Source: an uncultured Alphaproteobacteria bacterium (lineage in GTDB: Bacteria; Pseudomonadota; Alphaproteobacteria; SHNJ01). Taken from it: a stretch of 64,000 nt of DNA. The notes below the pieces were generated by a model. That model was not told the DNA's origin and made no database searches. It saw only the letters and a list, made by a program, of their open reading frames with translations. The position numbers were made by a program, and so were the translations under genes. Shown here one piece after another: positions 2,510 to 63,421 of this stretch. Position 1 is the stretch's first letter. Every line of letters starts with the position of its first letter. The stretch lies in contig CAYWJR010000001.1 of the NCBI GenBank assembly GCA_964458615.1, positions 24,429-88,428 of the forward strand, written 5' to 3'.

Positions 2510-2520
2510 AAGGTTTCATC

Positions 2521-3675
2521 ATGAATTTTACATTGTCGCCCGAACAAACCGCATTGCAAGAAATGGCGCGGAAATTCGCGTCGGAAAAATTATTTCCTTT
2601 CGCCGGGCAATGGGACGAACAAGAACATTTCCCGATGGACGTTTTGCGCGACGCCGCCGCGCTTGGGTTTACGGGATTATATTTGCCGGAACAATATGGC
2701 GGATCGGCGTTAACACGCCTGGATGCAGCGATCATATTCGAATCCCTGGCGGCGGGATGTGTTTCAACGACGGCGTTTTTAACCGTGCATAACATGGTGT
2801 CTTGGATAATCGAACAATATGCGCAAACGGACGTCAAAAAACATTTCTTGCCGAAAATGGCCGGGCTTCAGGCGATGGGCAGTTATTGCTTGACCGAATC
2901 GGGATCTGGGTCGGATGCCGCATCGCTGAAAACAAAAGCAATCAAGGACGGCGGCGATTACATCATAACCGGGAACAAGGTTTTCATCACCGCCGGCGGG
3001 GTCAGCGACGTATACGTTGTCATGGCCAGAACCGGGGGCGACGGCGCCGGGGGAATTTCCGCGATCTTGGTTGAAAAAGGCGCCAAGGGATTGTCGTTCG
3101 GCAAACCGGAACAGAAAATGGGTTGGCGCAACCAAGCCACCAATTCCATGAATTTGGATGGTGTGCGCGTGCCGCAAACCAATTTATTGGGCAAAGAAGG
3201 CGATGGGTTCAAAATCGCCATGCGCGCATTGGATGGCGGGCGGATCAATATCGCCGCCTGTTCATTGGGCGGCGCGCAATCCGCGCTGGATCTGGCCGGG
3301 CGGTACGTGCATGAACGCAAACAGTTCGGTAAAAAATTATCGGAATTCCAGGCATTGCAATTCAAAATCGCCAATATGGCGATTCAATTGGATGCCGCGC
3401 GGTTATTGACTTATCGCGCCGCCCAAAGTTTGGACGACGCCGATCCAAACGCCGCATTGCATTCGGCGATGGCAAAAAAATTCGCGTCCGAAGCGGCCTT
3501 TGCCATTGCCGATGAATCGTTGCAATTGCACGGCGGATATGGATATGTGCGCGAATACCAAATCGAACGGATATTCCGCGATCTGCGCGTGAACAGGATT
3601 TTAGAAGGCACCAATGAAATCATGCAACTGATCGTTGCGCGTAAAATATTGGAACAATATGCGGACGCCGCATGA
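2521..3675 (+). CDS. Acyl-CoA dehydrogenase (short/branched-chain, isobutyryl-CoA dehydrogenase-like).
   Basis: 384 aa starting at MNFTLSPEQ. ACAD motifs: CLTESGSGSDAAS, and the C-terminal QLHGGYGY...RDLRVNRILEGTNEIM with the catalytic Glu. The track ORF 2179..3675 is an unlikely upstream extension. A start at 2521 leaves an 11-nt gap after the hydrolase stop. Confidence 0.85.
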   Translation: MNFTLSPEQTALQEMARKFASEKLFPFAGQWDEQEHFPMDVLRDAAALGFTGLYLPEQYGGSALTRLDAAIIFESLAAGCVSTTAFLTVHNMVSWIIEQYAQTDVKKHFLPKMAGLQAMGSYCLTESGSGSDAASLKTKAIKDGGDYIITGNKVFITAGGVSDVYVVMARTGGDGAGGISAILVEKGAKGLSFGKPEQKMGWRNQATNSMNLDGVRVPQTNLLGKEGDGFKIAMRALDGGRINIAACSLGGAQSALDLAGRYVHERKQFGKKLSEFQALQFKIANMAIQLDAARLLTYRAAQSLDDADPNAALHSAMAKKFASEAAFAIADESLQLHGGYGYVREYQIERIFRDLRVNRILEGTNEIMQLIVARKILEQYADAA

Positions 3676-5592: not shown

Positions 5593-6123
5593 ATGATTCG
5601 CCTCGCAAACGCATTATTCATTTGTTTTGTATTTTTTAACGCACCCGCCGCCGATGCATCGTCTATTTATGCAAAACGTAAAAATCCGGCGCAACCAGCC
5701 GCGGCACCGGAAATATCCGATTCCACAGCAAACGAACAACTGGAATTGCCCGTATCTGCCGCGCCAAATGCGCCCATACCGTCCCCAACACCATCCAACG
5801 ATCAAATGATGCAAACGGCGGTGCAATCCACCATGTCGTCATTGACGGGCGATCAATTGCAATTATTGGCCGCGTGTTTGGAAAAACATATCGATTCGGA
5901 TACCGTCAATGCGATTGTGGGCGGGGGGGATTATTCCGGTGCGGGGCAGGCGATATCGCCCGGCAGTTATCAGAATGCGCAAAATTTTATTGCAACGCCC
6001 ATGGGCAAACAGGTGATGCAAAATTGCAATGCGGAAATACAGACATTGTTGCCGCAAGTGCAACAGCAATTTCAACAGGATTTATCACAAAAACCCGCAT
6101 TAGCCCCAGCGCCAGTCCAATAA
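5593..6123 (+). CDS. Secreted hypothetical protein.
   Basis: Start chosen at MIRLANALFICFVFFNAPAADA (signal peptide) because the upstream part of track ORF 5518..6123 overlaps the terminator hairpin. Pro/Ala/Gln-rich low-complexity body. Confidence 0.5.
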   Translation: MIRLANALFICFVFFNAPAADASSIYAKRKNPAQPAAAPEISDSTANEQLELPVSAAPNAPIPSPTPSNDQMMQTAVQSTMSSLTGDQLQLLAACLEKHIDSDTVNAIVGGGDYSGAGQAISPGSYQNAQNFIATPMGKQVMQNCNAEIQTLLPQVQQQFQQDLSQKPALAPAPVQ

Positions 6124-6207
6124 AGCTGTTATAATATTCCAATATGGATTAGAATTAATGTGTGGCTGGAACAAGCCATTTCATAATACCAAAGGCACAG
6201 GTTTATC

Positions 6208-7107
6208 ATGCGTCATTTCGTTCTTATTTTGGCTTTATCGATTGCCATTGCGCCGTTTGCCGCCAGCGCGCAAACCGGATATTTCGATCCGTTCCGCGAC
6301 AAAGGCAGCCATCCCGGGTCGGATTACAATCCCGAAGTCCGCGACAGCAGGCCGAGCGTGAAAAACGACGCCAAATCGCCGTCGGTTTCCGGCAACACCG
6401 GATCCATGCGCAGCGGATTGATGGATTTGAAATTGTCCGATTACGATCAGACCATGTTCGACAATTGTAGATCCGAAGCGTTAAGCGGCGGTTCGGACAT
6501 TATGCAAATTCGCAATGCCACCAGTTTTCTAAAGGCGCCGTACCGCAACCAATCTTGCGCGAAATTTGTGGTTGAAAAAATGCTGAACGGCATGGACACC
6601 GCGATGCGCAACAATCCCGAAGCTCTGCTTGAATTTCAACGCAGCAAAGATGCCCAAAGAAAATACGACGAATTGAAAAAAGCCTATATCATACTGGGTC
6701 GCGGCAATCCTGTTGCCGCGGATAATTCCGGCGATTTTTATCCGTTTTTGTCGAACAAAACAAAAACCGAATCCAGTACGGGCGGATTCAACAGCCTAAG
6801 CGCGAATCAGTTGCTTTCCAAACCGTTTTCGGTTCCTCCCGAAGAAAGTTACGATTTAACGCCTGCCGCAAAAACCTATGTGCCCCAAGATTGGTGGTCA
6901 AAAGATTATTTGCAGGTCGATATGGCGAAAATACAGGCGCAAATCGCCAGCCGCCAGGAACATAACAACCGTGTTCTAACCCCCGAGGCATCGGGGCCGA
7001 ACCCGCTCAAATCGATCATGATGGAAGCCGAACAAAAAGGCCAATCGCAATCGAATCGCGGACGGCGCCAGGGCGGAACATTGCCATCTTTCGAACATAC
7101 CCAATAA
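6208..7107 (+). CDS. Secreted hypothetical protein (299 aa).
   Basis: Clear signal peptide MRHFVLILALSIAIAPFAASAQ. No recognisable domain. Confidence 0.55.
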   Translation: MRHFVLILALSIAIAPFAASAQTGYFDPFRDKGSHPGSDYNPEVRDSRPSVKNDAKSPSVSGNTGSMRSGLMDLKLSDYDQTMFDNCRSEALSGGSDIMQIRNATSFLKAPYRNQSCAKFVVEKMLNGMDTAMRNNPEALLEFQRSKDAQRKYDELKKAYIILGRGNPVAADNSGDFYPFLSNKTKTESSTGGFNSLSANQLLSKPFSVPPEESYDLTPAAKTYVPQDWWSKDYLQVDMAKIQAQIASRQEHNNRVLTPEASGPNPLKSIMMEAEQKGQSQSNRGRRQGGTLPSFEHTQ

Positions 7108-7764: not shown

Positions 7765-8514
7765 ATGACGCAAATCCTATCGATGACGCCGCAATCCGGC
7801 GCAAAGCCGAAAAACCATGCCGCCGACGACTTGATCGCCATGGACGGCGCGCATATTCATTTCGATAAACGTTGCGTTCTGCATGCGATGAATTTGCGCA
7901 TTCAAAGACAAAGCATGGTCGCGATCATGGGGCCGAACGGTGCGGGTAAAACCAGCCTGCTGCGCGCGATTGTCGGCATTTTGCCGGTAACAACCGGATC
8001 CATCGCCATCGCAGGACGGCAGAAATTGACCATTGGCTATTTGCCGCAAATTTCCGATTTCGACCGGGATTTTCCATTGCGCGTTTCGGAATTGGTCGGC
8101 ATGGGTTTAATGAAAAAGAAATTGGCTAAAACGGCCCGCAAGGAAATCGTCGATAACGCGCTGGCCGATGTGCAATTATCGGATTACGCCGACAGTTTTA
8201 TTCAGGATCTGTCGGCCGGCCAATTGAAACGCGCATTTTTGGCGCGGATTTTGGCGCAGGATGCCGATATATTTTGTTTGGATGAACCGTTCGCGGAATT
8301 GGATCAATCCAGCACCGCGCAAATCATGTCATTGTTAAAACGCGCGCAAGCGCGGGGTAAAACAATTTTGGTTGTCATTCACGATCCCGCGCTGCTGAAT
8401 CAAGGATTCGATCAGATATTGAGAATTAGCAACCAAACCGCGACTTTGGATATAAATCCACATACTTACCCGCAATCGGCTTTGCGCGGATACAAACATG
8501 CTGAACCAGCCTAA
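7765..8514 (+). CDS. znuC: Metal (zinc/manganese) ABC transporter ATP-binding protein.
   Basis: Walker A GPNGAGKTS, ABC signature LSAGQLKR, Walker B IFCLDEP. Start placed at the first ATG downstream of the palindrome (MTQILS). 7744 or 7783 are alternatives. Confidence 0.8.
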   Translation: MTQILSMTPQSGAKPKNHAADDLIAMDGAHIHFDKRCVLHAMNLRIQRQSMVAIMGPNGAGKTSLLRAIVGILPVTTGSIAIAGRQKLTIGYLPQISDFDRDFPLRVSELVGMGLMKKKLAKTARKEIVDNALADVQLSDYADSFIQDLSAGQLKRAFLARILAQDADIFCLDEPFAELDQSSTAQIMSLLKRAQARGKTILVVIHDPALLNQGFDQILRISNQTATLDINPHTYPQSALRGYKHAEPA

Positions 8515-9367
8515 TTTCCAACAAATATTTATCGATCCATTTTTGAATTACGGATTTATGCAGGCCGCCTTGGCCGCGTTAGCGTTGTTGTGTTTATCCA
8601 GCATTCCAATCGGCGCGTTTGTGGTGTTGCGCCGGATCAGTTTGGTGGGTGATACTTTATCGCACGCCGTGTTGCCCGGTGTCGCGATTGCGTATGTATT
8701 ATTCGGCTTGTCCATAACCGCCCTGATATTCGGCGCGGTGATAACCGGATTGCTTGTGGCCTTGTTCGCGGGATTTGTATCGCGTAATACCAAATTAAAA
8801 GAAGATTCCAGTTTCGCGTCGTTTTATTTGATCTCGCTGTCTTTGGGGGTTTGCCTGATCAGCACGTTTGGCGGTAATACCGATTTGCTGCATTTTTTAT
8901 TCGGCGATTTATTGACCGTGCCGGATAATTATATTTATTGGCTGATGGGGCTTGTGGCGGCATCGACAACTTTATTTTTCTTGTGTTTCCGCGCATTTAT
9001 CGCCGAATCGTTCGATCCCAGTTTTATGCGCTTAAACGGCATGGGGGGCAGCAAATATTATTTCCTGTTTTTGGCCATGTTCGTCGTCAATATCGTATTT
9101 TCGTATTTTATCCTGGGCACATTATTGTCCATGGGTTTATTTATTCTGCCCGTGATCGCCGCGCGATTTTGGGTGCGCGGGATTATCCCATTGATTGGAT
9201 TGTCGATTGCGATCGGATTGGTATTTTCCTATCTAGGATTGGTTATATCCTATCATTTCAGTTTGCCGGCCGGCGCCAGCATCGTATTATGCCTTGGCGC
9301 CGTGTATGGCATTTCATTGATTGTGCATTTCGCCAACGCCGCCCGCGCCAAATTGTCATTTCAATAA
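8498..9367 (+). CDS. znuB: Metal ABC transporter permease (ZnuB/MntC family).
   Basis: 289 aa, about 8 TM segments, conserved ...RRISLVGDTLSHAVLPGVA... motif. Overlaps the znuC stop. Confidence 0.85.
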   Translation: MLNQPNFQQIFIDPFLNYGFMQAALAALALLCLSSIPIGAFVVLRRISLVGDTLSHAVLPGVAIAYVLFGLSITALIFGAVITGLLVALFAGFVSRNTKLKEDSSFASFYLISLSLGVCLISTFGGNTDLLHFLFGDLLTVPDNYIYWLMGLVAASTTLFFLCFRAFIAESFDPSFMRLNGMGGSKYYFLFLAMFVVNIVFSYFILGTLLSMGLFILPVIAARFWVRGIIPLIGLSIAIGLVFSYLGLVISYHFSLPAGASIVLCLGAVYGISLIVHFANAARAKLSFQ

Positions 9368-10674: not shown

Positions 10675-11745
10675 ATGTCAAAAAATCCCGTCACCCGCCG
10701 ACCTGCCTTTCATCTGCTTTATCGTGCGTTGTTTATTGCCTGCTTGATCGGTGTATCGGCGCAAAATGCCCGGGCTGACGAAGGCGAATTTTACGCCTGG
10801 CTGAGCAATTTCCGCACCGAAGCGTATAAACAAGGCATCAGCCCCGAAAGCATCAACGATCATTTCGCGGCAATCGAATACGTTCCAGATGTGATAACCA
10901 AAGACCGCAATCAACCGGAATTCAAATTATCGTTCAAAGATTACAAACAAAAAATCGTATCGGCCGAACGTATCGCCACGGGCAAAAAATCTTTGCGCGC
11001 CAACGAAAAATATTTGAACTGGGTGGAACAAAAATCCGGCGTGCCGAAATCGATTGTTGTCGCATTATGGGGCATCGAAACGCGTTTCGGACAGGTTACC
11101 GGCGGTTATGACATCCTAAGCGCGCTGGCGACATTGTCATATGACGGCAGACGGCGCGAATATTTTACCAAGGAATTTATCACCACGTTAAAATTGATGG
11201 ATAAACATCCGTATTTGACAAAACCGTTTATGGGATCATGGGCAGGGGCGATGGGACAATGCCAATTCATGCCCAGCACGTACTGGAATTTTGCGATCGA
11301 CGGCAACAATAATGGCCGCGTGGATTTGTGGAACGAACGCGAAGACGTATTCGCATCCGCCGCGAATTATTTGATGAAATCCGGCTGGAAAAAAGGCGAG
11401 CCATGGGGAACGCCCGTTAAACTAAGCAAGCCGGTGGACATCGAACTGGCGACGCTGAACGTGCAAAAAACCGTCGCGGAATGGGGTAAAATGGGTGTTA
11501 AAACATCCGCCGGCGGCGCTATGCCCAATTCCGGCGCCAAGGCATCGTTGATTATGCCCGATGGCAAAGACGGCCCGGCGTTTTTGGTATACCGCAATTA
11601 CCGCACTATTATGGCATGGAACCGGTCGCATCATTTCGCCATCAGCGTCGGCATGTTGTCCGACCGGATCGGCGGCGTGCAAAAGCATGCGGAACAACAA
11701 CCCGACAAACCATTATCATCCGCTGTTTCGGACGATATTTTATAA
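10675..11745 (+). CDS. mltB: Lytic murein transglycosylase (MltB family).
   Basis: Signal peptide MSKNPVTRRPAFHLLYRALFIACLIGVSAQNARA. Conserved MltB motifs (ALWGIETRFG, GAMGQCQFMPSTY). Start at 10675 preferred over 10564. Confidence 0.8.
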   Translation: MSKNPVTRRPAFHLLYRALFIACLIGVSAQNARADEGEFYAWLSNFRTEAYKQGISPESINDHFAAIEYVPDVITKDRNQPEFKLSFKDYKQKIVSAERIATGKKSLRANEKYLNWVEQKSGVPKSIVVALWGIETRFGQVTGGYDILSALATLSYDGRRREYFTKEFITTLKLMDKHPYLTKPFMGSWAGAMGQCQFMPSTYWNFAIDGNNNGRVDLWNEREDVFASAANYLMKSGWKKGEPWGTPVKLSKPVDIELATLNVQKTVAEWGKMGVKTSAGGAMPNSGAKASLIMPDGKDGPAFLVYRNYRTIMAWNRSHHFAISVGMLSDRIGGVQKHAEQQPDKPLSSAVSDDIL

Positions 11746-11754
11746 TTCGATTTT

Positions 11755-12879
11755 ATGAAACGGTTCATCCGCACCATTTGCGTTTCAATTGGGGTTGCCG
11801 TGGGGCTTTCGGGCTGCGCGGAAACGCAATTTATTACGCATGCCGGTAAAATATGGGGCGACGGTTCGACGCAACAACAAACCGCCGTCAATCCGAACGT
11901 GCAATACAAAGTCGGCAAACCATATCAAATCCAAGGACGTTGGTATTATCCCAAAGAAGATTGGGGTTACAGCGAAGAAGGTTTGGCGTCTTGGTACGGC
12001 GATGAATTTCATGGCCGCAAAACCGCTAATGGCGAATCGTTCGATAAATCCGCATTGACGGCGGCGCACCGCACCTTGCCTATGCCAAGCCTGGTTCGCG
12101 TGACGAATTTGGACAATGGCCGCATTGCGGTTTTGCGGGTCAACGACCGTGGGCCATTCAAAAAAGGCCGGATCATTGATGTCTCTCACGAAGCCGCCAG
12201 GGTGTTGGGATTTGAATCCCAAGGCATGGCGCGCGTGCGGGTTGAATTATTGACCGAAGAAAGCAAACGTTTGGCCATGGCGCACGGCGCCGATTTGCCC
12301 GACGATGTCGTCCAATCGATCCCTCGTTCCGGCGACCCGATTACCATGCAACAAACAAATGGCGGCATGGGCGCACCGCCTGGCGACGGCGATGTAACGG
12401 GGCAGGGATCGTCATTTCAATCTATCCAGACCGTGGAATTAACCCCGCCAGAACCGCTTGCCCCGCAAGGCGCCAAACGCCCACAGCCTTCTTTTACCCC
12501 GCCGCCCGCGCCATACGGTTCGGCGCAATCCCCTGGATTCGGCAACCAAGAATCGGAGCCAAATGTCGGGTTCAGCCGTTCCGATCAAACAAGCGATTTT
12601 GCGCCATCGCGCGCGCAACCCCAGGCCGCAGCGCCTGTCCCCGAAACCCAAGGCAATTTGTACCTGCAAGTCGGGGCATTTTCGAACCAGCAAAATGTGG
12701 AAAGACTGCAAAATCAGTTAAAAAACCTTGGCCAAGTCCAAGTCACCCCATTAGAAAGAAATGGCAGAACGTTGTTTCGCGTCCGCCTGGGGCCGATTTC
12801 CAGTTTCGACCAAGCAACCGTATTGCAATCCCGTGTCGCCGAATTCGGAATACAGGACGCAAAAATTATTTCGGAATAA
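11755..12879 (+). CDS. rlpA: Septal ring lytic transglycosylase RlpA (lipoprotein; DPBB domain plus C-terminal SPOR domain).
   Basis: Lipobox LSGC. DPBB region ([20 protein letters not shown]...RVTNLDNGR...VNDRGP). Pro-rich linker, then a SPOR-like C-terminus ([21 protein letters not shown]...FRVRLGP). Confidence 0.85.
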
Positions 12880-12905
12880 AACTTCAAAATAACAACAGGT
12901 GTTTA

Positions 12906-14042
12906 ATGACGATTCGTAAATTGACTGCGCTGATATGCGTTTTGGCCATATTCACCTGCTGGACGATAAATGCCGCATTGGCCATGGAAACCCCGGCTCG
13001 GCAGGCGATTGTTTTCGACGCGCAAACGGGCACCATTTTGTTTGAAAAAAACGCGGATGAAAAAATGCCGCCTTCGTCCATGAGCAAATTAATGACCGCG
13101 TATGTCGTTTTCGACATGTTGAAAAACGGCAAATTGAAATTGGAAGATACGTTCAAAGTCTCACAAAAGGCCTGGTCTACCCAAGGTTCCAAAATGTTCA
13201 TCGACATTAACACCGATGTCAAAATCGAAGATTTGCTGCGCGGTATGATCATTCAATCAGGCAACGACGCGTGCGTCGCATTGGCCGAAGGCGTATCGGG
13301 CAACGAAGAATCATTTTCGGATTTGTTGAATGAAACCGCCGCCAAAATCGGCCTGACATCCAGCCAATTCCGCAATTCAAACGGATGGCCGGATCCGAAT
13401 CATTATATGACTGCGCGCGATTTGTTGACATTGGGTTTGCACCTGATCAACGATTTCCCGGAATACATGCATTATTACAAAGAAACCGAATACACCTATC
13501 ACAAGATTAAACAAGGCAACCGCAATCCGTTATTGTACGGATTTCACGGCGCGGACGGTTTAAAAACCGGCCACACCGACGAAGCCGGCTATGGATTGGT
13601 TGGAACCGCCATTCGTGACGGCAGACGATTGATTATGGTCGTCAACGGATTGAAATCCATGCAAGAACGCGCCGACGAATCCAAACGGTTGTTGGAATGG
13701 GGTTTCCGCGAATTTAAAAATTATAAAATCGCGACGCCGGGTCAAACCATGGCCGATGTCCCGATTTGGATGGGCGAAAAAGACAAAGTCGCCGTCGCGG
13801 TCAAAGACCCCGTAATATTCACATTATCGAACGCGGACAGGGGCACGGTCAACGCCAAGGTTAAATTTACCCAGCCCGTTCATGCCCCCGTATCCAAAGA
13901 TACCGCCATTGCGGTTTTAACGGTCACTGGCGCAGGCGGATTCACCAAAGATTATCCGCTTTATCCCGTCGAAAATGTTGCTAAACTAGGGTTCATAAGC
14001 CGAACAATCAAAGGCATAACCTATATTTTAACGGGCAACTGA
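12906..14042 (+). CDS. dacC: D-alanyl-D-alanine carboxypeptidase (low-MW PBP, PBP5/6 family).
   Basis: Signal peptide. SMSK (SxxK), SGN and KTG motifs. C-terminal beta-sandwich domain. Confidence 0.85.
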   Translation: MTIRKLTALICVLAIFTCWTINAALAMETPARQAIVFDAQTGTILFEKNADEKMPPSSMSKLMTAYVVFDMLKNGKLKLEDTFKVSQKAWSTQGSKMFIDINTDVKIEDLLRGMIIQSGNDACVALAEGVSGNEESFSDLLNETAAKIGLTSSQFRNSNGWPDPNHYMTARDLLTLGLHLINDFPEYMHYYKETEYTYHKIKQGNRNPLLYGFHGADGLKTGHTDEAGYGLVGTAIRDGRRLIMVVNGLKSMQERADESKRLLEWGFREFKNYKIATPGQTMADVPIWMGEKDKVAVAVKDPVIFTLSNADRGTVNAKVKFTQPVHAPVSKDTAIAVLTVTGAGGFTKDYPLYPVENVAKLGFISRTIKGITYILTGN

Positions 14043-46147: not shown

Positions 46148-46585
46148 TTATCTTGCTAAATAATTTCTGCTGGCGTCTGGTGTTAAAAAACTGAGGCGTA
46201 CAATTTTTTCATCAGGATTAGGCACACGAGCAAATTTAATCGCGGTTGTTGCAACAACAGGCGGCGCTATGATTGCTACGCCGCCTCCCGAATCCTCATG
46301 GGCTTCATCCGGGCACTCAGTTATTATATGCTCATCTTGATCATCTAAATCGGCTAAAAACTGACCTATGGGAACGTGACTAATATCGAAGTCTGCCTCT
46401 GCCAATTCTACCCATACCGTTACTTTTTGCCCGTTATCACGGTTCAAAAAAGATAATGAGCCGGGAAAACTACTTGCGAATTTAGCCGCGTCTGGAAACA
46501 ATTCCGCATGAAGATGAAATACGGTTTTTGATCCAGCCGCAATCGAATCGAATATTTCTCTTCCTACGGAAAAAGCCACTGCCAT
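46148..46585 (-). CDS. Hypothetical acidic protein (145 aa) inserted between pdhA and pdhB.
   Basis: ORF tightly packed in the operon (start 4 nt before the pdhA stop). No family recognised. Confidence 0.45.
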   Translation of the reverse strand: MAVAFSVGREIFDSIAAGSKTVFHLHAELFPDAAKFASSFPGSLSFLNRDNGQKVTVWVELAEADFDISHVPIGQFLADLDDQDEHIITECPDEAHEDSGGGVAIIAPPVVATTAIKFARVPNPDEKIVRLSFLTPDASRNYLAR

Positions 46586-47617: not shown

Positions 47618-47769
47618 TGGAAACCTTGGATAAAGGGATAATTCGGAACGACAATTACTAGCCCAAAACCGGCGAAATGTAAAAATAATTTCTATTGTTG
47701 CGGGTGCGAACTGTTATGGCTTGTGAAAGAATAATATGGTTTTACAGGGATTTCAGGCGAAATCCCATT

Positions 47770-48582
47770 TTATCCGAATAACCGAACGCGATCATGCGGG
47801 TTATCGGATCTTCCGGCAATTGGCTGTCTTGTTTGAAACATTGCCAAACAATCCCATTTTGCGTAATCGGCGTCTATTGGCGCGCTCAAGACATCGTGGA
47901 TCTTAATGATGTCTTGCAACGATTCGAACGCCGCATAACACAATGCCTTTATTCCCGCTGGCGCGATTGTATTTTCAACCTGCCAAATCGATTTTAATTC
48001 GCCGGATCTTTTATTCAAACTGACCGAATCCAAAGCAGGCGGGCGGTATTCCGTGATTGGGTCCAGTATTTTCCAGCTATCGGCGTAATCACCCGCCCTG
48101 CCAGTCATGCAATGACGATACAAATCCGCCTGAATCTGCTTTATTGATGCAATTCTTTGCCCTGCCAAATCGAATGTATCTATCCATTTCGGTACAACCG
48201 CATCGACCAATTCAGAATCTTTGGCCGAGGTTTTGGACAAAGTATTATCATGATCCGACAGATATTCCGCCCCAACCATGACATAACGCACGGCGCGATT
48301 CATAAAATTGATCATTTCCGGCGAATATGCCGCGCCGGTTTGCGTATGGCGTTGCCGCAGATGCAAAATAGTTGCGGCGCAAGCGGAAATCAATTGACCA
48401 TGTTCGTAGTCATGCAAGGCCGACGATTCAAAATCAGTAATTAAATTTTCAAGATTCGCGAAAATAATCGGCGGAACATCATTTTTAGAAAACAATTGGG
48501 CATAAGCCAATTGAAATGAAAATCCCAAATTGTTGTACGCTTGGTCGATTGTTTCAGATGGTGTGCGCGCCCGCCCGGTCAT
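47770..48582 (-). CDS. Hypothetical protein (270 aa).
   Basis: ORF; second gene of a two-gene minus-strand unit. No family recognised. Confidence 0.5.
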   Translation of the reverse strand: MTGRARTPSETIDQAYNNLGFSFQLAYAQLFSKNDVPPIIFANLENLITDFESSALHDYEHGQLISACAATILHLRQRHTQTGAAYSPEMINFMNRAVRYVMVGAEYLSDHDNTLSKTSAKDSELVDAVVPKWIDTFDLAGQRIASIKQIQADLYRHCMTGRAGDYADSWKILDPITEYRPPALDSVSLNKRSGELKSIWQVENTIAPAGIKALCYAAFESLQDIIKIHDVLSAPIDADYAKWDCLAMFQTRQPIAGRSDNPHDRVRLFG

Positions 48583-48594
48583 CGGCCAAATCCT

Positions 48595-49368
48595 TTATGC
48601 GGCGCGGCGGCGCCATGATGGTTTGATTTCCAGCAATACAACAGGCGGCAATTGCAATTCAGCGCGCTGTAAATTTTTTGGCAACGGCGATGCAACCGAT
48701 TGTTCCATGCGCAATACCGCTCCCGCCGCCTCGGTGACATAATAAGCCACCAAACGAAACGGTTCCGCCGCCGCGTTTTCAATTGGAAAAATATTTTTTG
48801 CCGATTGCATCAATTCAACAAAATCATTGTTCTTGGCCGCGTCCGACAATGTCACAGATCCCATATACCGCATATGTTCAACAGTTTGAAATTCCGCGTC
48901 ATTCAATCGCGCCACAATCGATGTGCCGACGCCGTTGGCCGCCTTTAATGCCAAATCCAGACGGAAAAACGTACCGCGTTGCGGCCAGTCGGGCAAGGAT
49001 TCGGAAATTTGTTTCATCGCGCGGTCGATTTTCAATTGATGTTTGGTCGGCATATGTCCGTTTTGACTGGCGCGTTCGGCAATCGATTCCACCATGGCAT
49101 AGGCCGCATCCATCAAAACCAAGGATCGAAAACTGACTGGTTTGGCATTGCGGCGGCGCGCCAAAATAAATTCCGAACACGCCTGCGCCAGATTACCCAT
49201 GGATGCCGCCGAAAATTGATCCGGGAATTCTTCGGCGCGTTGCGTAATATCGCGTATGGTCTTTAAATGACGGCTTGCGGGCGGGCTAAAACTGCCTGGA
49301 TTGGTTTTTCCTGCCTGTTCGGTTAAAAACATCAATGCGTTTTCAAATATTTCCATCTTGCCCCTCAA
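48595..49368 (-). CDS. Hypothetical protein (257 aa).
   Basis: ORF; first gene of a two-gene minus-strand unit, 12-nt gap to the next gene. No family recognised. Confidence 0.5.
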   Translation of the reverse strand: MRGKMEIFENALMFLTEQAGKTNPGSFSPPASRHLKTIRDITQRAEEFPDQFSAASMGNLAQACSEFILARRRNAKPVSFRSLVLMDAAYAMVESIAERASQNGHMPTKHQLKIDRAMKQISESLPDWPQRGTFFRLDLALKAANGVGTSIVARLNDAEFQTVEHMRYMGSVTLSDAAKNNDFVELMQSAKNIFPIENAAAEPFRLVAYYVTEAAGAVLRMEQSVASPLPKNLQRAELQLPPVVLLEIKPSWRRRAA

Positions 49369-49495
49369 ATATCGGATCCATTATGGATAAATTTTTACTA
49401 AAATCAAGCTTTTTCAAAAGCAATAAAATTTCAATTAACGCTGAATAATCAATAAATTAGCTGATTATATTGACAAATTACTTTATTGAATTAGG

Positions 49496-50149
49496 GTGCG
49501 TAAAATCAGAAAACAGAGGGATTCATACATGTTTGAACCAAATACAAAATTTGAATTGGCCACATATAACACAGTAAAAAATGAATGGGAGAAAATGCCA
49601 CCCGAGGTCAATGGCGGCAAAATTGAATTTTCAGATCCCATAGAGGCAACAAGCGCATTAACCAATCATTACACTAGTTGCGATCGGACATTTCAATTAA
49701 TCGACCCGGTTTTATTTCTTCCAAAAAACGAAACGGAAACTCCATTAAACGGTGCTATGACATTATTAATCTGCGCGCCAGGCGGGGAAAAGCGCCCGAT
49801 ATCGGAACAAGAATACAATGCACTACATGCTCTAACATTAACCTATGAATTTGCAATCGCAACCCCAAACGGCAATTTGGTGCCTTGCAATGAATTGGCA
49901 ACAGACAATCATGATCCAAGCCCCTTAAGCGCATCGGCAATGTCAACGATACTGCAACAACCACTGGGGCGGTCATGGATACCGGAACATCCTCCGCGTC
50001 AATTAGCCAATACATCAACAGCAACCAGATTTCATGGTGTATCAGCGATGCCAATGACGATTTTGGTAAATCAACCCGGCAAAAAAACTGCCCCGATCTC
50101 GCCTGATCAATTGGCGGCGTTACGGGCATTGTGCCGCGCTAGCGCCTAA
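49496..50149 (+). CDS. Hypothetical protein (217 aa) with an internal sequence repeat.
   Basis: Divergent from the two-gene unit across a 127-bp AT-rich spacer. Internal repeat: GGEKRPISEQEYNALHALTLTY versus PGKKTAPISPDQLAALRALCRA. Confidence 0.5.
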   Translation: MRKIRKQRDSYMFEPNTKFELATYNTVKNEWEKMPPEVNGGKIEFSDPIEATSALTNHYTSCDRTFQLIDPVLFLPKNETETPLNGAMTLLICAPGGEKRPISEQEYNALHALTLTYEFAIATPNGNLVPCNELATDNHDPSPLSASAMSTILQQPLGRSWIPEHPPRQLANTSTATRFHGVSAMPMTILVNQPGKKTAPISPDQLAALRALCRASA

Positions 50150-50171: not shown

Positions 50172-50217
50172 GGCGGCTTGGATCAAACACGTATTGAATC
50201 TAAGCCGCCAATTTTTC
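50172..50217. terminator. Convergent (bidirectional) intrinsic terminator between the hypothetical gene and mfd.
   Basis: Stem ggcggctt...aagccgcc with an extended imperfect lower stem, followed by ATTTTTC on the plus strand. Overlaps the last codons of mfd. Confidence 0.5.
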
Positions 50218-56747: not shown

Positions 56748-58094
56748 TTACCGTTCCGTCAGGGCATTATGTTTTGCTTTGAAAAACGGTTTCAACAAAT
56801 AATCCAAAACCGTTTTCGATCCCGTCAACACGTCCACCTGGGCGGTCATGCCGGGAATAATAGGCAGGCTTTTGGTGTTGCCCTTGAACGTGTTGCCATA
56901 GGTACGCAATTTTACCAGATAAAAACTTTCCCCGCGTTCGTCGACGATAGTATCGGGGGAAATATGTTCTACTTTTGCTTTTAAACCGCCATAAATCGAA
57001 AAATCATAAGCGGTAATTTTCACCATGGCTTCTTGATCCGGGCGGATAAAGGCGATGTCGGATGGGCGGATTTTCGCCTCGACCAGCAAATTATCTTCGA
57101 TCGGAACGACCTCGACCAAATCTTCGCCGGGCTTTATGACGCCGCCGACGGTGTTAATTTTGATTTGTTTAACGGTTCCTTTTAATGGGGAACGCACTTC
57201 GGTTCTGGCCACCCGGTCGCGCGATGCCGTTATGCTTTGGGTCAATGCGTTTAACTCGCCGCGCTTTTGATTCAATTCATTCGATACTTCGGAACGGAAA
57301 GTTTGTTTTTTATCCTCTACCCTTTGGCGCGCTTCTTCCATCGCAACGCGGGCGCGCGGTTGCGCTGCCTTGGCCTGGTTCATGCGCGATTCCAATTCGG
57401 TAATTTCGCGTTCGATGCTTAGCAGTTCCATACGCGATGTAACGCCTTGTTGCACGCCCTTGCTGGCGATTTCTTTTTGTTGATACGCAACATCCAGGGA
57501 TTTTTTGGTGCTCTCGGCGCTGGTGTATAATTCGGACAATTCCTGTTGTTTCTGTGAAACCTGCGATTGGAAAATATCCAACTGGCCGCGCAATTGCGAT
57601 TGGCGCGATTGGTAAAGCGCCATTTCGCTTTTTACCGCATCGGATGCTTCGTCAATAACTTCTTTTGGGAATGCCAATGGCTTGCCTTCGTATTCCGCGT
57701 TCAGGCGCGATATAGTCGCAATCAACGACAAATATTTGCTGCGCGCCGTTTTATAATCCGCCTGCGCATAGGTATTGTCGATGATCAGCATCACTTCGTC
57801 TTTTTCGACCATCTGGCCTTCGCGAACCAGGATTTTGTTGATAATGCCGCCCTCCAGGTTCGATACGACCTGAATATGGCTCGAGGTGATGATTTTCCCC
57901 TGCCCGCGCGTTACTTCGTCGACGCTGGCAAAAGCAGCCCACAGCAAGAACACCACAAAGAATAAACTGATACACAAAAGCAATATATGCGAAGCCATGC
58001 GCGCGCCGCGATGCGATGCCGCGAATCTCTCCGGCATAAAATCGGTTTCTTCTTCGTGCACCCGCAAATATTCTTTGGCAATTTCTTTTAACAT
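56748..58094 (-). CDS. hlyD: Type I secretion system membrane fusion protein (HlyD family).
   Basis: N-terminal TM anchor, long coiled-coil, lipoyl-like and beta-barrel regions typical of HlyD. Immediately downstream of the ABC exporter. Confidence 0.85.
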   Translation of the reverse strand: MLKEIAKEYLRVHEEETDFMPERFAASHRGARMASHILLLCISLFFVVFLLWAAFASVDEVTRGQGKIITSSHIQVVSNLEGGIINKILVREGQMVEKDEVMLIIDNTYAQADYKTARSKYLSLIATISRLNAEYEGKPLAFPKEVIDEASDAVKSEMALYQSRQSQLRGQLDIFQSQVSQKQQELSELYTSAESTKKSLDVAYQQKEIASKGVQQGVTSRMELLSIEREITELESRMNQAKAAQPRARVAMEEARQRVEDKKQTFRSEVSNELNQKRGELNALTQSITASRDRVARTEVRSPLKGTVKQIKINTVGGVIKPGEDLVEVVPIEDNLLVEAKIRPSDIAFIRPDQEAMVKITAYDFSIYGGLKAKVEHISPDTIVDERGESFYLVKLRTYGNTFKGNTKSLPIIPGMTAQVDVLTGSKTVLDYLLKPFFKAKHNALTER

Positions 58095-58116
58095 TCTATT
58101 CCTCGGTTTCCGACCG

Positions 58117-60339
58117 TTAGGTGGACTTTACTTCGCCGTCTTTAAGGGAATTCAAAACTTGGTCGCGCGGCCCGTCGGCAACGACCTTGCCATCGCTCAT
58201 CACAATCAACCGATCGACAATCGATAACATCGATGCGCGGTGTGTGACCACAATGACTGTTTTATCTTTCATAACCTGCGCCAAACGCGCCTTGAAACGA
58301 TTTTCCGAACCGGGATCCATGGAACTGGTCGGTTCATCCAAAACCAAAATCGGCGGATCCAGCAACAAAGAACGCGCCAAGGCAATCGATTGGCGTTGAC
58401 CACCCGAAAGCCCTTCACCGCGCTCGCCGATATTCAAATCATAACCCAACGGATGATGGCGCAGGAAATCGGTAACACCGGCCATTGTTCCCGCGGTCAA
58501 TAACGCGCGGTCATCGGCGCCCGTTCGGCCCATGATGATATTTTCCTTTACCGTGCCGTAAAATAAAAATACGTCCTGCGGGCAAATGCCGATATTACGC
58601 CGTAAATCCGCCGGATCGATTTGGCGAACATCGGTGCCGTCGATCGTTACAGAACCTTCTTGGGGTTCGTACAAAGCCATCATCAATTTTTCAAGCGTGG
58701 TTTTACCCGATCCAATCGGCCCGATAATGCCGACTTTTTCACCCGGTTCGATCCGGAAATTGCATTGGTTCAGCGCCTTTGTCCGTTGGCCTGGATACGC
58801 AAACGTGACGTTACGGAATTCGATTTGGCCGCGCAAATGCGGACGGCTTAGGAATGCTTTGCCAGCCGGGCGTTCGACCGGCAATTGCATAAATTCATCC
58901 AATGTTTCAAGCGCCGATTCGCTTTGGTGAAAACGGGTCAATAATCCGGCGATTTGCCCCAAAGGCGCAGTTGCGCGCCCCGCCAAAATAACCGCCGCGA
59001 TCAGGGCGCCGGTTGTAATCGACCCAGCCGCAACCAAATATGCGCCGACAATAACGATCATGACCGTTACCATGTAGTTGGCAAACACGGTGAAATTCAA
59101 AACCGCCGAAGACAGGCTGTGCGCATGCATGGCGGATTTGGATGTTTTACCGACGAAACTTTCCCATAAACGCTGCATATATCCTTCGGCACCCATCTTT
59201 TTAATCGTTTCAAGGCCGGTAATGGATTCCACAAGCAACGCGCTTTTTTGCGACGATTCACGGAAAGTTTCTTTGACGATGCGATTCAGTGGACGTTGCA
59301 TGTAAAACGCGACGCCCATAATGATCGGAATGGCGATCAACGGAACCAATGCCAGCCATCCGCCGATTAATGCGATTACCAAAATATACAAAAACAAAAA
59401 TGGCAAATCGACCAATGTGACCAATGTGGCCGAAGTATAAAATTCCCGCAAATGTTCGAATTCGCGCAAATGCCCGGCCAATGCGCCGGCCGATGGCGGG
59501 CGCGATTCCATTTTCATGCCCAGCAATTGTTCGAACAGTTTACTGGAAATCAATGTGTCCGCACCGCGTCCGGTTAAATCCAAAAAATATGCGCGCAGCG
59601 ATCGGATAATAAAATCGAAAACAAATACGATCATCACGCCAACCGCCAAAACCCACAACGTTTCCATGGCATTGTTGGGGATAACGCGGTCATACACGTT
59701 CATCGTGAATAATGGTGCCGCCAGCGCGAATAAATTGATCATCAATGCCGCAAAGGCGACTTCGACATACATGCTTTTGAAACGGCGCAAGGTGCCCCAG
59801 AACCAGCCCGCTTTTTCCGGTTCTTCCAAACCTTGTGCGCGCGGGTCGTAACGGAATTCGGGTTTGGCAAAAATGGCGTATCCTGTGAACGAAGATTCCA
59901 AATCGCGCATGGCGATTTGCTGAACCCCGCCGGTTTCAGGCAAAATAATTTCCGCCTTATCGCCGATAACGCCAACATAAACGCATGAACGGCGATCTTT
60001 TAACAACAATATGCACGGCAGCAACATCGGATTAATATCCGGCAAATTGCGCACCATCAGCCGCGCGGAAATACCTGCGCGTTGTGCCGAACGGATAAAC
60101 AACGCGGGCGACATGCCCATTTCCGAAATCGGCAATCCGGCCGCCAACGCCTCGCGCGATTGCGGGCGATCCAGCAATTTACAAATAATATGCAGACAAT
60201 TTAGCAGAACGTCTTCGGCATTGCTGACCGACGGGGTAACGCGCCAAACTTGGCGCGCCGAATCGCCGCTGTCTTTGGATTGATCGGACGGCTGGTTGCC
60301 GGAAAAAGATGGGTCTTTATTTGAATCGCCAGATTGCAC
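58117..60339 (-). CDS. hlyB: Type I secretion system permease/ATPase (HlyB family) with N-terminal C39-like domain.
   Basis: C39-like domain (CLHIICKLLDRP...). Six TM helices. ABC module with Walker A GPIGSGKTT, signature LSGGQRQ, Walker B ILVLDEPTS. Confidence 0.9.
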   Translation of the reverse strand: MQSGDSNKDPSFSGNQPSDQSKDSGDSARQVWRVTPSVSNAEDVLLNCLHIICKLLDRPQSREALAAGLPISEMGMSPALFIRSAQRAGISARLMVRNLPDINPMLLPCILLLKDRRSCVYVGVIGDKAEIILPETGGVQQIAMRDLESSFTGYAIFAKPEFRYDPRAQGLEEPEKAGWFWGTLRRFKSMYVEVAFAALMINLFALAAPLFTMNVYDRVIPNNAMETLWVLAVGVMIVFVFDFIIRSLRAYFLDLTGRGADTLISSKLFEQLLGMKMESRPPSAGALAGHLREFEHLREFYTSATLVTLVDLPFLFLYILVIALIGGWLALVPLIAIPIIMGVAFYMQRPLNRIVKETFRESSQKSALLVESITGLETIKKMGAEGYMQRLWESFVGKTSKSAMHAHSLSSAVLNFTVFANYMVTVMIVIVGAYLVAAGSITTGALIAAVILAGRATAPLGQIAGLLTRFHQSESALETLDEFMQLPVERPAGKAFLSRPHLRGQIEFRNVTFAYPGQRTKALNQCNFRIEPGEKVGIIGPIGSGKTTLEKLMMALYEPQEGSVTIDGTDVRQIDPADLRRNIGICPQDVFLFYGTVKENIIMGRTGADDRALLTAGTMAGVTDFLRHHPLGYDLNIGERGEGLSGGQRQSIALARSLLLDPPILVLDEPTSSMDPGSENRFKARLAQVMKDKTVIVVTHRASMLSIVDRLIVMSDGKVVADGPRDQVLNSLKDGEVKST

Positions 60340-60446
60340 GTAATTCTCCCTATCCTATTGAATATAGAGAAAACACCCCAAATTGGTAAGAAGGAAGTAG
60401 CAATTGGGTGCAATAGCCAAAATATAGTTTCCTAATTGCTACTGAA

Positions 60447-60480
60447 CAATACAAAGAAAGAGCACCGCTTTCGCGGTGCT
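60447..60480 (-). terminator. Intrinsic terminator downstream of the RTX gene.
   Basis: Hairpin agcaccgc-tttc-gcggtgct, followed on the minus strand by CTTTCTTTGTATTG. Confidence 0.45.
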
Positions 60481-60508
60481 GAGGTAGGTTCGGTAGAGAA
60501 AACTTGGA

Positions 60509-63421
60509 TTACGCAATCACAACATCGTTCATGGTTACGCCGCCGCCCGCAAAGGTGACGTTGTTCAATTGCGCCATATTGACGAAATTCGATCCGTTTG
60601 CCAAACCGTCAATATCGACTTGCATCATGGTAAATCCGCCGCCATCCACAAAACGGACGAAATCCGACAATGGGGTGGTTCCGGAAACATAACCGCTTAA
60701 TACATCTTCCAATCGAATCGTATCCGATCCGGTTTGGAAATCTTGAATGACTTCGGATGCCGAACCTTCGCTGACATCGCGATAAACAAAAGCATCCGCG
60801 CCCGCGCCGCCGACCAAATGATCGTTGCCGGCGCCGCCGTAAATGACATCATTGCCGTTTTCGCCGTACAATCTGTCGTTGCCACTGCCACCGTCAAGAT
60901 TGTCGTTGCCGTCACGCGAGTAAATGACATCGTCTCCGGCGCCACCTAAAATCGTATCGTTGCCTGCGTTGGTGAAAACATAATCGTTGCCATTGCCAGC
61001 ATCGACATCGACGTCGACATTGTATGAAAAACGGCTGCTCAACAAATGCAACACGTCATTGCCGTCGCCAAGATCGAAATGTTCGACGTCTTTGATCAAC
61101 TGTGTATCCAAAATTGACGCATCGATTTGCGGTGTTTCGATACCTGCGATAATAGATACCGCCCGGCCATCAATGATAAACACATCCGCACCGGCGGTTC
61201 CAAGAACCGAATCGTAACCGTCGCCGCCATCGTAAACGTCTTGATATATAATCTTTCCTTGGATAGGCGCGTTGTGCCCATACGAATTTAAAACGTTGCC
61301 AACGGTCGCAGCAGGCGACAACCATGTGCCGTCGCCTTGATCGTTAAAGAACATATCGTTGCCAGCGCCGCCGCGGATAACATCAATACCCAAGCCACCG
61401 GTTAAAATGTCATGGCCATCGCCACCATCGATTAAATCGTTGCCAGTGCCGCCATAAACCAAATCGTCGCCCGCGCCCGAAGAAATAACGTCGCGTCCCG
61501 CGCCGCCATCTATCGAATCATGGCCGTCTTGTGTCCAAATCACGTCGTTGCCGTTGCCCGCATCGACAATAACGTCGTCGAACGAAACCGTCGCACTGCG
61601 CATGTCTAAAATATCGTTGCCATCGCCCAGAACAAATTCTTCGATGCCAAGCAATCTGGATTCACCAGGAACCGGAGATGGATTGACGTTATCATCCGCC
61701 AAAATCCAATCATTGCCGGATGTCGCGGTCAAAGTATCGAAACCGTTGCCGCCCAAATAAATGTCATGCGACATATTCATGGTGGTGTTCACCATGCTGC
61801 GCACGGCATATGCGTCCAACGATGCGATATTTTCAATCGCAGTCGGCAACAACCATGTGCCCGGAGGCGTGATCGAACCCGAATTGGTCCAAACCGCATC
61901 GACACTGTAACGCAACGTATCGTTGCCGTCGCCGCCGAACAATAAATCCACGCCGGTGCCGCCATCCAAAATATCGTTGCCCGCGCCGCCATTGATAATG
62001 TCGTCGCCTGCATTGCCGTTCAATACATCGTCGCCGTCTTCGGCATCGTCGCCGATAATATCGTCGCCGTCGCCGCCGTTAATCACATCATTGCCGGCAT
62101 CGCCGAATAAATAATCGTCGCCGGAATCGCCATCGATATTGTCGTTGCCCAGGCCGCCTTCGATTAAATCGCTGCCTGCGCCGCCGGAAATATTATCGTT
62201 GCCATCGTTACCGGCAATATCGTCGTCGCCGTCGTCGCCGAACAACATATCGTCGCCAGCGCCGCCGAATACAACGTCGTTACCCGAACCGCCACGAATG
62301 GTATCGTTACCATCATTGCCTTCGATGTAATCGTTGCCATCGTCACCGTTAATGGTGTCGTTACCGGCATCGCCGTATAAATTGTCATCGTCCGCGCCGC
62401 CGGAAATATTGTCGTTGCCGTCGCCGCCGGAAATTGTATCCATGCCGCCGTTGCCGGACAATTGATCGTTGCCAGCATCGCCGTCGATTAAATCGTTCAA
62501 GCTGCCGCCAACGACCGTGTCATTGCCAGCGCCTGCGTGGAATGTGAATGTTGGATCAAAACCCGCAGCAGTAGCGGCGGCCAAACTGTCGGCCAAAATT
62601 ACCACGTCATCGCCGTTCAATGCGTCATATTGAGTACCAGCCAAATAAGTACCGGCCACAACGTTATTGAAATTCACCGTGTCGTTTTGCTCCGTAAACA
62701 AGCCGTTTGGTGGCGGCGGCGGAGGTGGCGGCGGAGGTGGCGGCGGCGGAGGTGGCGGCGGTGGCGGCGGCGGAGGTGGTGGTGGCGGTGGCGGAGGTGG
62801 TGGTGGCGGCGGTGGCGGTGGTGGTGGTGCCACATCTCCGGCTTGAGCTACAACCAAAACCGAACGCTCCAATCTGTCGCCTGCTCCCGCAGATCCCAAA
62901 CCGTCGTCTTGTGCCAATCCAATCGCACGAACGCCTGGCAATGTGCCAGCATCTTCAAAACGCGAAAAAGCCGAACCGCTATTTGCTTCGGATCCGCCTT
63001 CTGCTGTTTGGATTAAACCGATTCTGTTCAATAATGCTTCTAAATCTGGGCCGGATATATCGCCGTTATCGGCCAATTTCAAATGCGGAGGATTCGATTC
63101 TTTCGATGTCTTAAAGAAATCGACCAAAACCGTTTCTTTGCCGCTTGCGTCTTTGATGATTAAATTTTGTCCATCAACCGTCATTTTGGAATCCGACAAG
63201 TTGATCTTGCTTAGATCGATATTTTTGTTGGTGTTGGTATCGATTAAGGTTTTTTCAGGAATAGCGGCCAGTTTAGGCGATACTTTTTGTGCGGTATCGA
63301 CAACTTTTTTCGCTTGTTTGTGAGAGGCATCGACAGATTTGTCGGCGACAACTTTGGCTTTTGCAGTGGATTTAACCGCTGATTTTTTGATGCCGGTGTC
63401 GCATTTTGGATCTACAGCCAT
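60509..63421 (-). CDS. Large RTX-type calcium-binding repeat protein (T1SS substrate), 970 aa, with a ~40-residue homopolymeric proline tract.
   Basis: Dozens of GGxGxDxUx nonapeptide repeats (e.g. GGAGNDILDGGTGVDLLFGGDGNDTL) arranged in two duplicated modules. Lys-rich N-terminal region. Pro tract encoded at 62707..62826. C-terminus ...GGGVTMNDVVIA fits an uncleaved T1SS signal. Lies between tolC and hlyB. Confidence 0.85.
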   Translation of the reverse strand: MAVDPKCDTGIKKSAVKSTAKAKVVADKSVDASHKQAKKVVDTAQKVSPKLAAIPEKTLIDTNTNKNIDLSKINLSDSKMTVDGQNLIIKDASGKETVLVDFFKTSKESNPPHLKLADNGDISGPDLEALLNRIGLIQTAEGGSEANSGSAFSRFEDAGTLPGVRAIGLAQDDGLGSAGAGDRLERSVLVVAQAGDVAPPPPPPPPPPPPPPPPPPPPPPPPPPPPPPPPPPPPPPPPNGLFTEQNDTVNFNNVVAGTYLAGTQYDALNGDDVVILADSLAAATAAGFDPTFTFHAGAGNDTVVGGSLNDLIDGDAGNDQLSGNGGMDTISGGDGNDNISGGADDDNLYGDAGNDTINGDDGNDYIEGNDGNDTIRGGSGNDVVFGGAGDDMLFGDDGDDDIAGNDGNDNISGGAGSDLIEGGLGNDNIDGDSGDDYLFGDAGNDVINGGDGDDIIGDDAEDGDDVLNGNAGDDIINGGAGNDILDGGTGVDLLFGGDGNDTLRYSVDAVWTNSGSITPPGTWLLPTAIENIASLDAYAVRSMVNTTMNMSHDIYLGGNGFDTLTATSGNDWILADDNVNPSPVPGESRLLGIEEFVLGDGNDILDMRSATVSFDDVIVDAGNGNDVIWTQDGHDSIDGGAGRDVISSGAGDDLVYGGTGNDLIDGGDGHDILTGGLGIDVIRGGAGNDMFFNDQGDGTWLSPAATVGNVLNSYGHNAPIQGKIIYQDVYDGGDGYDSVLGTAGADVFIIDGRAVSIIAGIETPQIDASILDTQLIKDVEHFDLGDGNDVLHLLSSRFSYNVDVDVDAGNGNDYVFTNAGNDTILGGAGDDVIYSRDGNDNLDGGSGNDRLYGENGNDVIYGGAGNDHLVGGAGADAFVYRDVSEGSASEVIQDFQTGSDTIRLEDVLSGYVSGTTPLSDFVRFVDGGGFTMMQVDIDGLANGSNFVNMAQLNNVTFAGGGVTMNDVVIA
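62707..62826. repeat. 120-bp GGN/CCN trinucleotide simple-sequence repeat encoding the poly-Pro tract.
   Basis: 40 consecutive NGG triplets on the plus strand (ggtggcggcggcggaggt...). The antisense frames give spurious Arg/Trp-rich and Ala/Val-rich ORFs (62537..63016, 62707..63114). Confidence 0.9.

Follow-up and report, generated by a model that had tools for sequence, protein, structure and literature searches.

What are three genes that fit no described family doing between mfd and the pyruvate dehydrogenase operon of an uncultured alphaproteobacterium? The question is raised by a 64,000-nucleotide stretch of contig CAYWJR010000001.1 (the window), in which the genes that we call A, B and C fill the space between mfd and pdhA. 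Reading and comparing the sequences leads us to the view that this block is a genuine, vertically inherited three-gene module whose proteins evolve fast and whose range is a single clade of uncultured Alphaproteobacteria. Neither the A/B family nor the C domain appears to fit any family described so far, and they are new in that limited sense only. To the question of what the module does we offer a tentative answer, which depends on the short control region between B and C.

A three-gene module at a fixed site

The preliminary description of this locus reported three open reading frames (ORFs), two of them 12 nt apart in the same orientation and the third divergent from them across a 127-bp AT-rich spacer. 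Those coordinates were confirmed, and the starts of two genes were then revised. The longest ORFs are 47770..48582 (-) for A (270 amino acids, aa), 48595..49368 (-) for B (257 aa from a TTG) and 49496..50149 (+) for C (217 aa from a GTG). We leave the start of A as first read. The true start of B is likely the ATG at 49356, behind a GAGGGG Shine-Dalgarno site at 49361..49366, and that of C is likely the ATG at 49529 with AGAGGGA as the Shine-Dalgarno site upstream, because the N-termini of the orthologues begin exactly there and the public gene calls are 253 and 206 aa. The GTG at 49496 from which C was first read falls within the inferred -10 element of the C promoter. The spacer between the longest ORFs is 127 bp with 23% GC; with the revised starts it becomes 172 bp with 28% GC. 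B and A form a two-gene operon, and the 12 nt between them (AGGATTTGGCCG) hold an AGGA Shine-Dalgarno site. The genes and the hairpins that bound them are as follows (pI, isoelectric point).

47747..47766, minus strand: hairpin 4 nt past the stop codon of A, ahead of pdhA (dG -12.9 kcal/mol, z -3.45)
47770..48582, minus strand: gene A, 270 aa, soluble and acidic (pI 5.6); it follows B in the B-A operon and is its distant paralogue
48595..49356, minus strand: gene B, 253 aa, a soluble, helical and basic protein (pI 9.0), best conserved of the three and core of the module
49529..50149, plus strand: gene C, 206 aa, soluble, acidic (pI 5.4), two tandem domains of about 100 aa, divergent from B-A
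50172..50209, unstranded: convergent (bidirectional) terminator hairpin between C and mfd, an inverted repeat (dG -25.6 kcal/mol, z -4.55)

The first hairpin is a probable end or attenuator of the B-A transcript, judged by its position and predicted stability; no clean U-tract follows it on the minus strand. The convergent terminator that had been proposed ahead of mfd is present, with AAUUUUU next on the plus strand and a 3' arm that overlaps the mfd stop codon. A scan with Rfam found no RNA family in the block, and no tRNA or Rfam element in or beside it; the sole tRNA of the window lies at 10.4 kb.

The relatives that we compared are the loci L003, L010, L014, L016, L017, L019 and others, and B is seen in seven lineages. 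L003 is a 42-kb contig (JACCDG010819312.1), to which contig L009 is near-identical; L023, the only closer relative, is identical to L003. L016 stands for the GCA_004295055.1 lineage and L017 is a related contig. The gene order in L003 is recG, sdh5, mfd, a 205-aa gene (-), a 255-aa gene (+), a 275-aa gene (+) and pdhA, so that the orthologues of C, B and A stand in the same order between mfd and pdhA, with identities to the window of 37% for A, 58% for B and 32% for C. The C orthologues of L003 and L016 are 32-34% identical to the C of the window. Every relative recovered uses the same mfd-pdhA slot, which bears out the earlier suggestion of a lineage-specific cassette between two core modules. 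B is the only gene of the block present in all seven lineages, and it keeps one fixed position. A is reduced to a 74-aa C-terminal remnant in L016 and is also a partial or remnant copy in L010, while in L014 an A-like copy (L014_271) precedes B.

The phyletic distribution is narrow: one clade, seven lineages. Word-indexed searches of 5.8 billion proteins returned self-hits only for A and C, and a single relative of B (P0003, 58% identical, carried by L003 and L009). When 1.84 billion representative proteins were searched with a profile, no more than six clusters of the B family came up, and all six sit between mfd and pdhA. A scan of GTDB genomes and a metagenome scan added no further lineages. 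The locus is present in SRA runs that include SRR9107545, SRR8466248, SRR27901409/10 and DRR350542. Searching A, B and C by tblastn against 72,556 plasmids and 50,697 phage records gave no match, and literature searches with the locus accessions came back empty. We also looked for a deviation in codon usage. A (z -0.7) and B (z +1.0) are normal for the window, whereas C is atypical, with a third-position GC content (GC3) of 0.39 and z -2.4. We reject the idea that the block is cargo of a mobile island, prophage or plasmid. It has no plasmid or phage homologue and no link to an integrase or tRNA, only C deviates in codon usage, and the block also occupies the same position in all relatives.

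The three proteins have changed far more than their neighbours. Identity to the window across loci is 84-94% for PdhA, 64-82% for Mfd and 56-97% for the neighbours overall, versus 27-58% for A, B and C in L003 and L016. B ranges from 25 to 60% across loci, and the B of the window is only 27% identical to that of L016. The non-synonymous divergence (dN) of the block is 0.35-0.80 and that of its neighbours 0.02-0.23; synonymous divergence (dS) is saturated, which makes dN/dS uninformative. It is from this contrast in identity and dN that we take the ORFs to be kept as proteins of constant length that evolve far faster than their surroundings.

One could argue instead that the ORFs are chance frames or decaying pseudogenes. 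In favour of this are the great divergence of the proteins, the atypical codon usage of C and the shrinking of A to its remnant in L016. Yet the orthologues are still full-length, in frame and of similar length even though synonymous divergence is saturated, the motifs, Shine-Dalgarno sites and promoters are conserved, and the same gene calls were made in independent assemblies. With the block conserved in relatives at the same site, we give this explanation next to no chance, and for the module as a whole we regard it as refuted.

A second explanation follows from the position. B, together with A, could be an accessory or regulatory subunit of the pyruvate dehydrogenase operon downstream, or of Mfd upstream. 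In all seven lineages B lies between mfd upstream and pdhA downstream and points the same way as pdhA, and transcription may run on into pdhA, since the hairpin after A has no clear U-tract. However, gene order is conserved throughout the clade, so adjacency tells little. PdhA, PdhB and PdhC together are 84-97% identical across loci and B only 25-60%, a mismatch that would be unexpected for a tight subunit, and genes on the opposite strand part B from pdhA in L016 and L019. The B family was seen in this clade alone (six clusters among 1.84e9 representative proteins), whereas pdh and mfd are widespread core genes. We find a role as an accessory subunit highly unlikely.

Two protein families

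The genes were first described as hypotheticals. They are not three independent ones: by profile comparison A and B are distant paralogues that arose in an old tandem duplication. A direct BLASTP comparison of A with B gives no match, and the paralogy is visible only by profiles: hhalign joins the A family (4 sequences) to the B family (7) with a probability of 94.3%, E 1.1e-7 and 172 collinear columns. The 271-aa protein L014_271 matches both families by BLASTP and is thus a bridging homologue. A helix motif is common to both (LAxxCxxFILARRQ in B, SAxAAxxLHLRQ in A), and so is an (L/M)PxWP loop. It is on the bridging homologue, the profile match, the helix motif and the loop that we base the old duplication.

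In the seven-sequence alignment B has an invariant LPxWPxxGxF-type motif with invariant columns P, G, F and L, and it ends in a conserved basic tail, RRRAA; its pI is about 9 in 4 of the 7 lineages. Cys and His are invariant in neither family, and among the invariant columns of A there is a single Ser, which lies in a helix-like motif. For these reasons A and B look non-enzymatic, and we believe they probably are. All three proteins lack transmembrane segments and signal peptides (the maximum 19-residue Kyte-Doolittle window is below 1.2). An AlphaFold2 (AF2) model of B has a mean confidence score (pLDDT) of 62.8 and is confident for residues 1-130, where the N-terminal half is modelled as an up-and-down helical bundle.

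The preliminary description had found no recognisable family motif in any of the three proteins, and much wider comparison agrees. Scans of A, B, C, their orthologues and the other genes of the slot against Pfam, NCBIfam, PADLOC and PHROGs gave only sub-threshold matches that did not recur, MRP-L20 being an example. Profile searches of the PDB with all three families returned designed helical proteins or noise only, and the Foldseek search of the B model against PDB and BFVD gave no match with E below 0.4. Neither the sensitive profile searches nor Foldseek thus pointed to a known family or fold, and no library searched holds a homologue with a known housekeeping function. The helical bundles and repeats that such searches bring up (Rop-like, Csp and designed proteins) differ from B, with identities of 3-14% and unrelated functions. 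The Csp copper-storage bundles have a Cys-rich core, which B lacks, and matches of this kind are typical of any helical bundle.

The closest thing to a family assignment for B comes from the C-terminal ligand-binding domains of TetR regulators, which it resembles in being all-helical and in weak sequence matches. Models for TetR_C (PF17928 TetR_C_22 and PF17939 TetR_C_30) match 3 of the 7 B members, the best with E 0.0064 and 17 bits, below the Pfam gathering threshold. We nonetheless reject B as a TetR-family regulator: no TetR_N helix-turn-helix appears in the seven members even at E values up to 1, and only about 25 residues precede the TetR_C-like region.

C consists of a novel domain of about 100 aa that is present twice in tandem. 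Its halves align with 30% identity over 70 residues (E 8e-6), and a hidden Markov model (HMM) of the domain unit matches residues 1-103 and 105-204 separately. The internal repeat of some 24 residues noticed at the outset is real, with 12 of 27 residues identical between positions 76-102 and 175-201 of the 206-aa protein, but it is merely the best-conserved end of the duplicated domain.

49529..49837, plus strand: C domain copy 1 (aa 1-103), from the domain HMM and the half-versus-half alignment
49754..49834, plus strand: repeat core copy 1, AMTLLICAPGGEKRPISEQEYNALHAL, 12/27 residues identical to copy 2
49838..50146, plus strand: C domain copy 2 (aa 104-206), from the domain HMM and the half-versus-half alignment
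50051..50131, plus strand: repeat core copy 2, PMTILVNQPGKKTAPISPDQLAALRAL, best-conserved repeat core

The repeat motif TLLVxxPxGxKRPITxxEL is kept across the C family. The family also includes homologues with one domain, L014_122 (122 aa) and L017_104 (104 aa). In L019 a 110-aa ORF at 2483..2815 (-), between B and pdhA, looks C-like by eye (ITILGRERTGMVMPIDRDVYARLL against TLLICAPGGEKRPISEQEYNAL), but the domain HMM gives it an E value of only 0.82.

The C-termini deserve a separate remark. Proteins of the slot that are otherwise unrelated have in common a basic C-terminal tail with a small last residue: RRRAA, KRRAA, RGRGAA, RYRDAG, RGRDAA, RERAA, RNRQA, SRKRA and RGARA. These tails could be a tag for proteolysis or export, or they could be a by-product of a lineage-wide bias towards proteins that end in AA. 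Such a bias does seem to exist. Ten of the 54 window ORFs of at least 100 aa end in Ala-Ala (for example Mfd in KLAA, PdhA in VEAA, NtrY in ADAA and B in RRAA) where about 1% would be expected (binomial p about 1e-9), and the same holds for 4 of 16 genes in L003 and 4 of 17 in L016; these counts look like a lineage-wide bias at protein C-termini. The Ala-Ala end of B as a special degron is rejected, as about 20% of the proteins of the lineage end this way.

The control region and its candidate operator

If the proteins have drifted so far, what has stayed the same? The 172 bp between the revised starts of B and C are about 71% identical to their counterparts in L003 and L016, as compared with 46-62% identity at four-fold degenerate sites in the neighbouring genes and 38% in B. 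The features of this region are listed here.

49357..49528, unstranded: bidirectional control region, 172 bp, 28% GC
49376..49388, unstranded: perfect 13-bp palindrome ATCCAT-A-ATGGAT (ATCCATAATGGAT), candidate operator, overlapping the CATAAT -10 of the B-A promoter
49380..49407, minus strand: predicted B-A promoter of sigma70 type (TTGATT, 16 nt, CATAAT), from a consensus scan
49470..49497, plus strand: inferred C promoter (TTGACA, 16 nt, TAGGGT), from reading the sequence and the alignment; the consensus scan did not call it

The hexamers of the B-A promoter, spaced by 16-17 nt, are also found in L003, L016 and L010. The TTGACA of the C promoter (49470..49475) is invariant in the window, L003 and L016, and its -10 keeps the pattern TAnnnT, reading TAATGT in L003 and TACTTT in L016. 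Transcription is predicted to begin near 49373 (-) for B-A and near 49504 (+) for C. The palindrome has its sole exact match in the window at this position. Loci of the window, L003 and L016 types each contain one exact copy, always just upstream of B; it lies in a block conserved at 24 of 24 bases with L003, and the L010 variant has one mismatch. As RNA the palindrome forms no stable hairpin (z +0.67), and for this reason its most likely role, in our view, is that of a DNA site, an operator bound by a dimeric protein. A palindromic site that lies over a core promoter and is conserved across lineages is one mark of a repressor-operator cassette, and the block has it.

The comparison with divergent cassettes of the tetR-tetA type is instructive. 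Our block shares with them a short AT-rich spacer with back-to-back promoters of sigma70 type, an operon whose -10 is covered by a perfect palindrome, and a small gene divergent from that two-gene operon. The difference is that the proteins of our block have no recognisable DNA-binding domain, and that the candidate regulator, C, is a tandem-domain protein and a putative binder of the site.

We tentatively propose that the block is a locally regulated module. The palindrome would be the operator at which a dimeric or pseudo-dimeric protein represses B-A, and C is the best candidate for that protein since it is divergently encoded and its two domains would make a built-in pseudo-dimer suited to a site of two-fold symmetry. 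B and A would be a hetero-oligomeric binding or adaptor pair and not enzymes. We hold this reading as a possible one that may well prove wrong. The original notion of a regulatory module thus stands as far as the conserved bidirectional control region and its palindrome go, which is indirect evidence, and falls short in that no DNA-binding domain was recognised in the three proteins.

Several observations weigh against our proposal. The library scans recognised neither a DNA-binding domain nor a known fold in A, B or C. The single-sequence AF2 model of C has a pLDDT of 33 and gives no usable fold, and C is acidic (pI 5.4). L014 has a one-domain C and no palindrome; L010 has the near-palindrome and no recognisable C. 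The palindrome and a two-domain C occur together in three lineages only, and these are related and not independent. The conserved block could also reflect constraint on the promoter alone, or a regulator encoded elsewhere.

There is a rival reading in which the palindrome is bound by B, by A or by both (autoregulation), or by an outside regulator, while C is a co-located structural partner. B is basic in most lineages, has a conserved Arg-rich helix (FILARRQN) as well as its basic tail, and is alone in being present in every lineage, and in L010 a near-identical promoter and palindrome stand without a recognisable C. On the other hand, the window and L016 agree at 13 of 13 positions of the palindrome, while their B proteins share only 27% identity, and the sub-threshold TetR_C matches come without the N-terminal helix-turn-helix of TetR. 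For an outside regulator, the site is found once in 64 kb and once per 20-kb locus, which argues against a global regulon. We consider this rival unlikely.

If our proposal of a locally regulated module with C as the binder is true, the locus would hold two new protein families without a relative in Pfam, NCBIfam, PDB, PADLOC or PHROGs, and a compact unit of regulation in which a 13-bp palindrome covers part of a conserved promoter, all in an alphaproteobacterial lineage of which little is known. The combination of a near-frozen control region with hyper-divergent proteins would be a useful signature for conflict-type or adaptor modules in slots of the core genome. It is important to keep this in proportion. 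Orphan gene clusters are common in metagenome-assembled genomes; the novelty here is that the proteins cannot be placed in known families, which does not by itself amount to new biology, and its practical value is modest until a function is found.

Three smaller features of the control region should be recorded. An inverted repeat (TCAATAAATTA ... TACTTTATTGA, 49449..49489, arms of 11 nt set 19 nt apart) flanks the TTGACA -35 of the C promoter. L003 and L016 keep this repeat only in part, and it may represent either a second operator or nothing more than the AT-rich context of a promoter. The conserved TTATCCATA within the palindrome region (49376..49392) is one position off the DnaA-box consensus TTATCCACA. 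The L016 and L010 versions of the palindrome region create a GANTC site (CcrM-type), and the window version does not.

Variable slots and the case for conflict

The fast evolution of the proteins can be read in a very different way, as the mark of an arms race. On this reading the block is a conflict-type module, made of immunity, anti-phage, competition or host-interaction effector proteins, and its site is a hotspot of variation in the core genome. No other gene of the neighbourhood evolves as fast as A, B and C (27-58% against 56-97% identity, with dN to match). The mfd-pdhA slot shows turnover: paralogue duplications, the remnant of A, an extra one-domain C and additional membrane-protein paralogues in L016/L017. 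There is a second variable slot between pdhA and pdhB, an RTX protein with a type I secretion system lies 6-13 kb away, and the basic C-terminal tail of B is conserved. Other observations speak against it. The slot genes have no match in PADLOC, PHROGs, Pfam or NCBIfam, save a weak partial one to E1-E2 in the neighbouring membrane protein of L016. There is no toxin, nuclease or ATPase domain, no signal peptide, and no integrase, tRNA or mobile-element link at the block. B is kept in all seven lineages at one position, and positive selection cannot be shown since dS is saturated. We find the conflict reading doubtful.

The preliminary description had also raised the possibility of an effector or immunity-like function. 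We found no toxin, secretion or defence domain, no signal peptide and no link to a mobile element, and the codon usage of A and B is normal; nothing speaks directly for such a function, which we consider conceivable but unlikely. Particular classes were tried and rejected. For known anti-phage defence, A, B and their orthologues have no match in PADLOC-DB 2.0 and C has a partial match of 9.6 bits (E 0.045). A type II toxin-antitoxin or effector-immunity pair is rejected, since A, B, C and their orthologues have no Pfam or NCBIfam domain whatever, and so is a substrate of the Sec, Tat or type I pathways, A, B and C having neither a signal peptide nor the HemolysinCabind repeats that the nearby 970-aa RTX protein has. 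The block does resemble immunity and toxin-antitoxin pairs in its tandem paralogues, its rapid divergence and its variable genomic slot. It differs from them in having no toxin partner or defence match, larger proteins (206-270 aa) and a fixed chromosomal site.

A broader claim would take the mfd-pdhA and pdhA-pdhB slots together as one hotspot of the core genome, housing an undescribed conflict or host-interaction module with two new folds, arms-race proteins and a frozen promoter controlled by the palindrome. We judge this distinctly unlikely.

The contents of these slots are worth describing in any case. The pdhA-pdhB slot of the window holds a 145-aa ORF at 46148..46585 (-), with gaps of 3 nt and 12 nt to its neighbours, no family match and strongly atypical codon usage (GC3 0.33, z -4.6). 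In the same slot L003 has an unrelated 237-aa ORF (12778..13491) and L016 has none. The mfd-pdhA slot of L016 also contains a pair of paralogues, 226 and 269 aa long and 26% identical, that are predicted to be membrane proteins (8075..8755 (-) and 11042..11851 (-)). The extra one-domain C homologue of L017, of 104 aa, lies in 5869..6930. Neither it nor the L016 membrane proteins have a Pfam match. At 56748..63421 (-) of the window is a 970-aa RTX protein (HemolysinCabind) with a type I secretion pair as its neighbour, at a distance of 6-13 kb from the block. From the Pfam calls on the orthologous L003 genes, the pair is an ABC exporter with a C39 peptidase domain and an adaptor of HlyD/AprE type.

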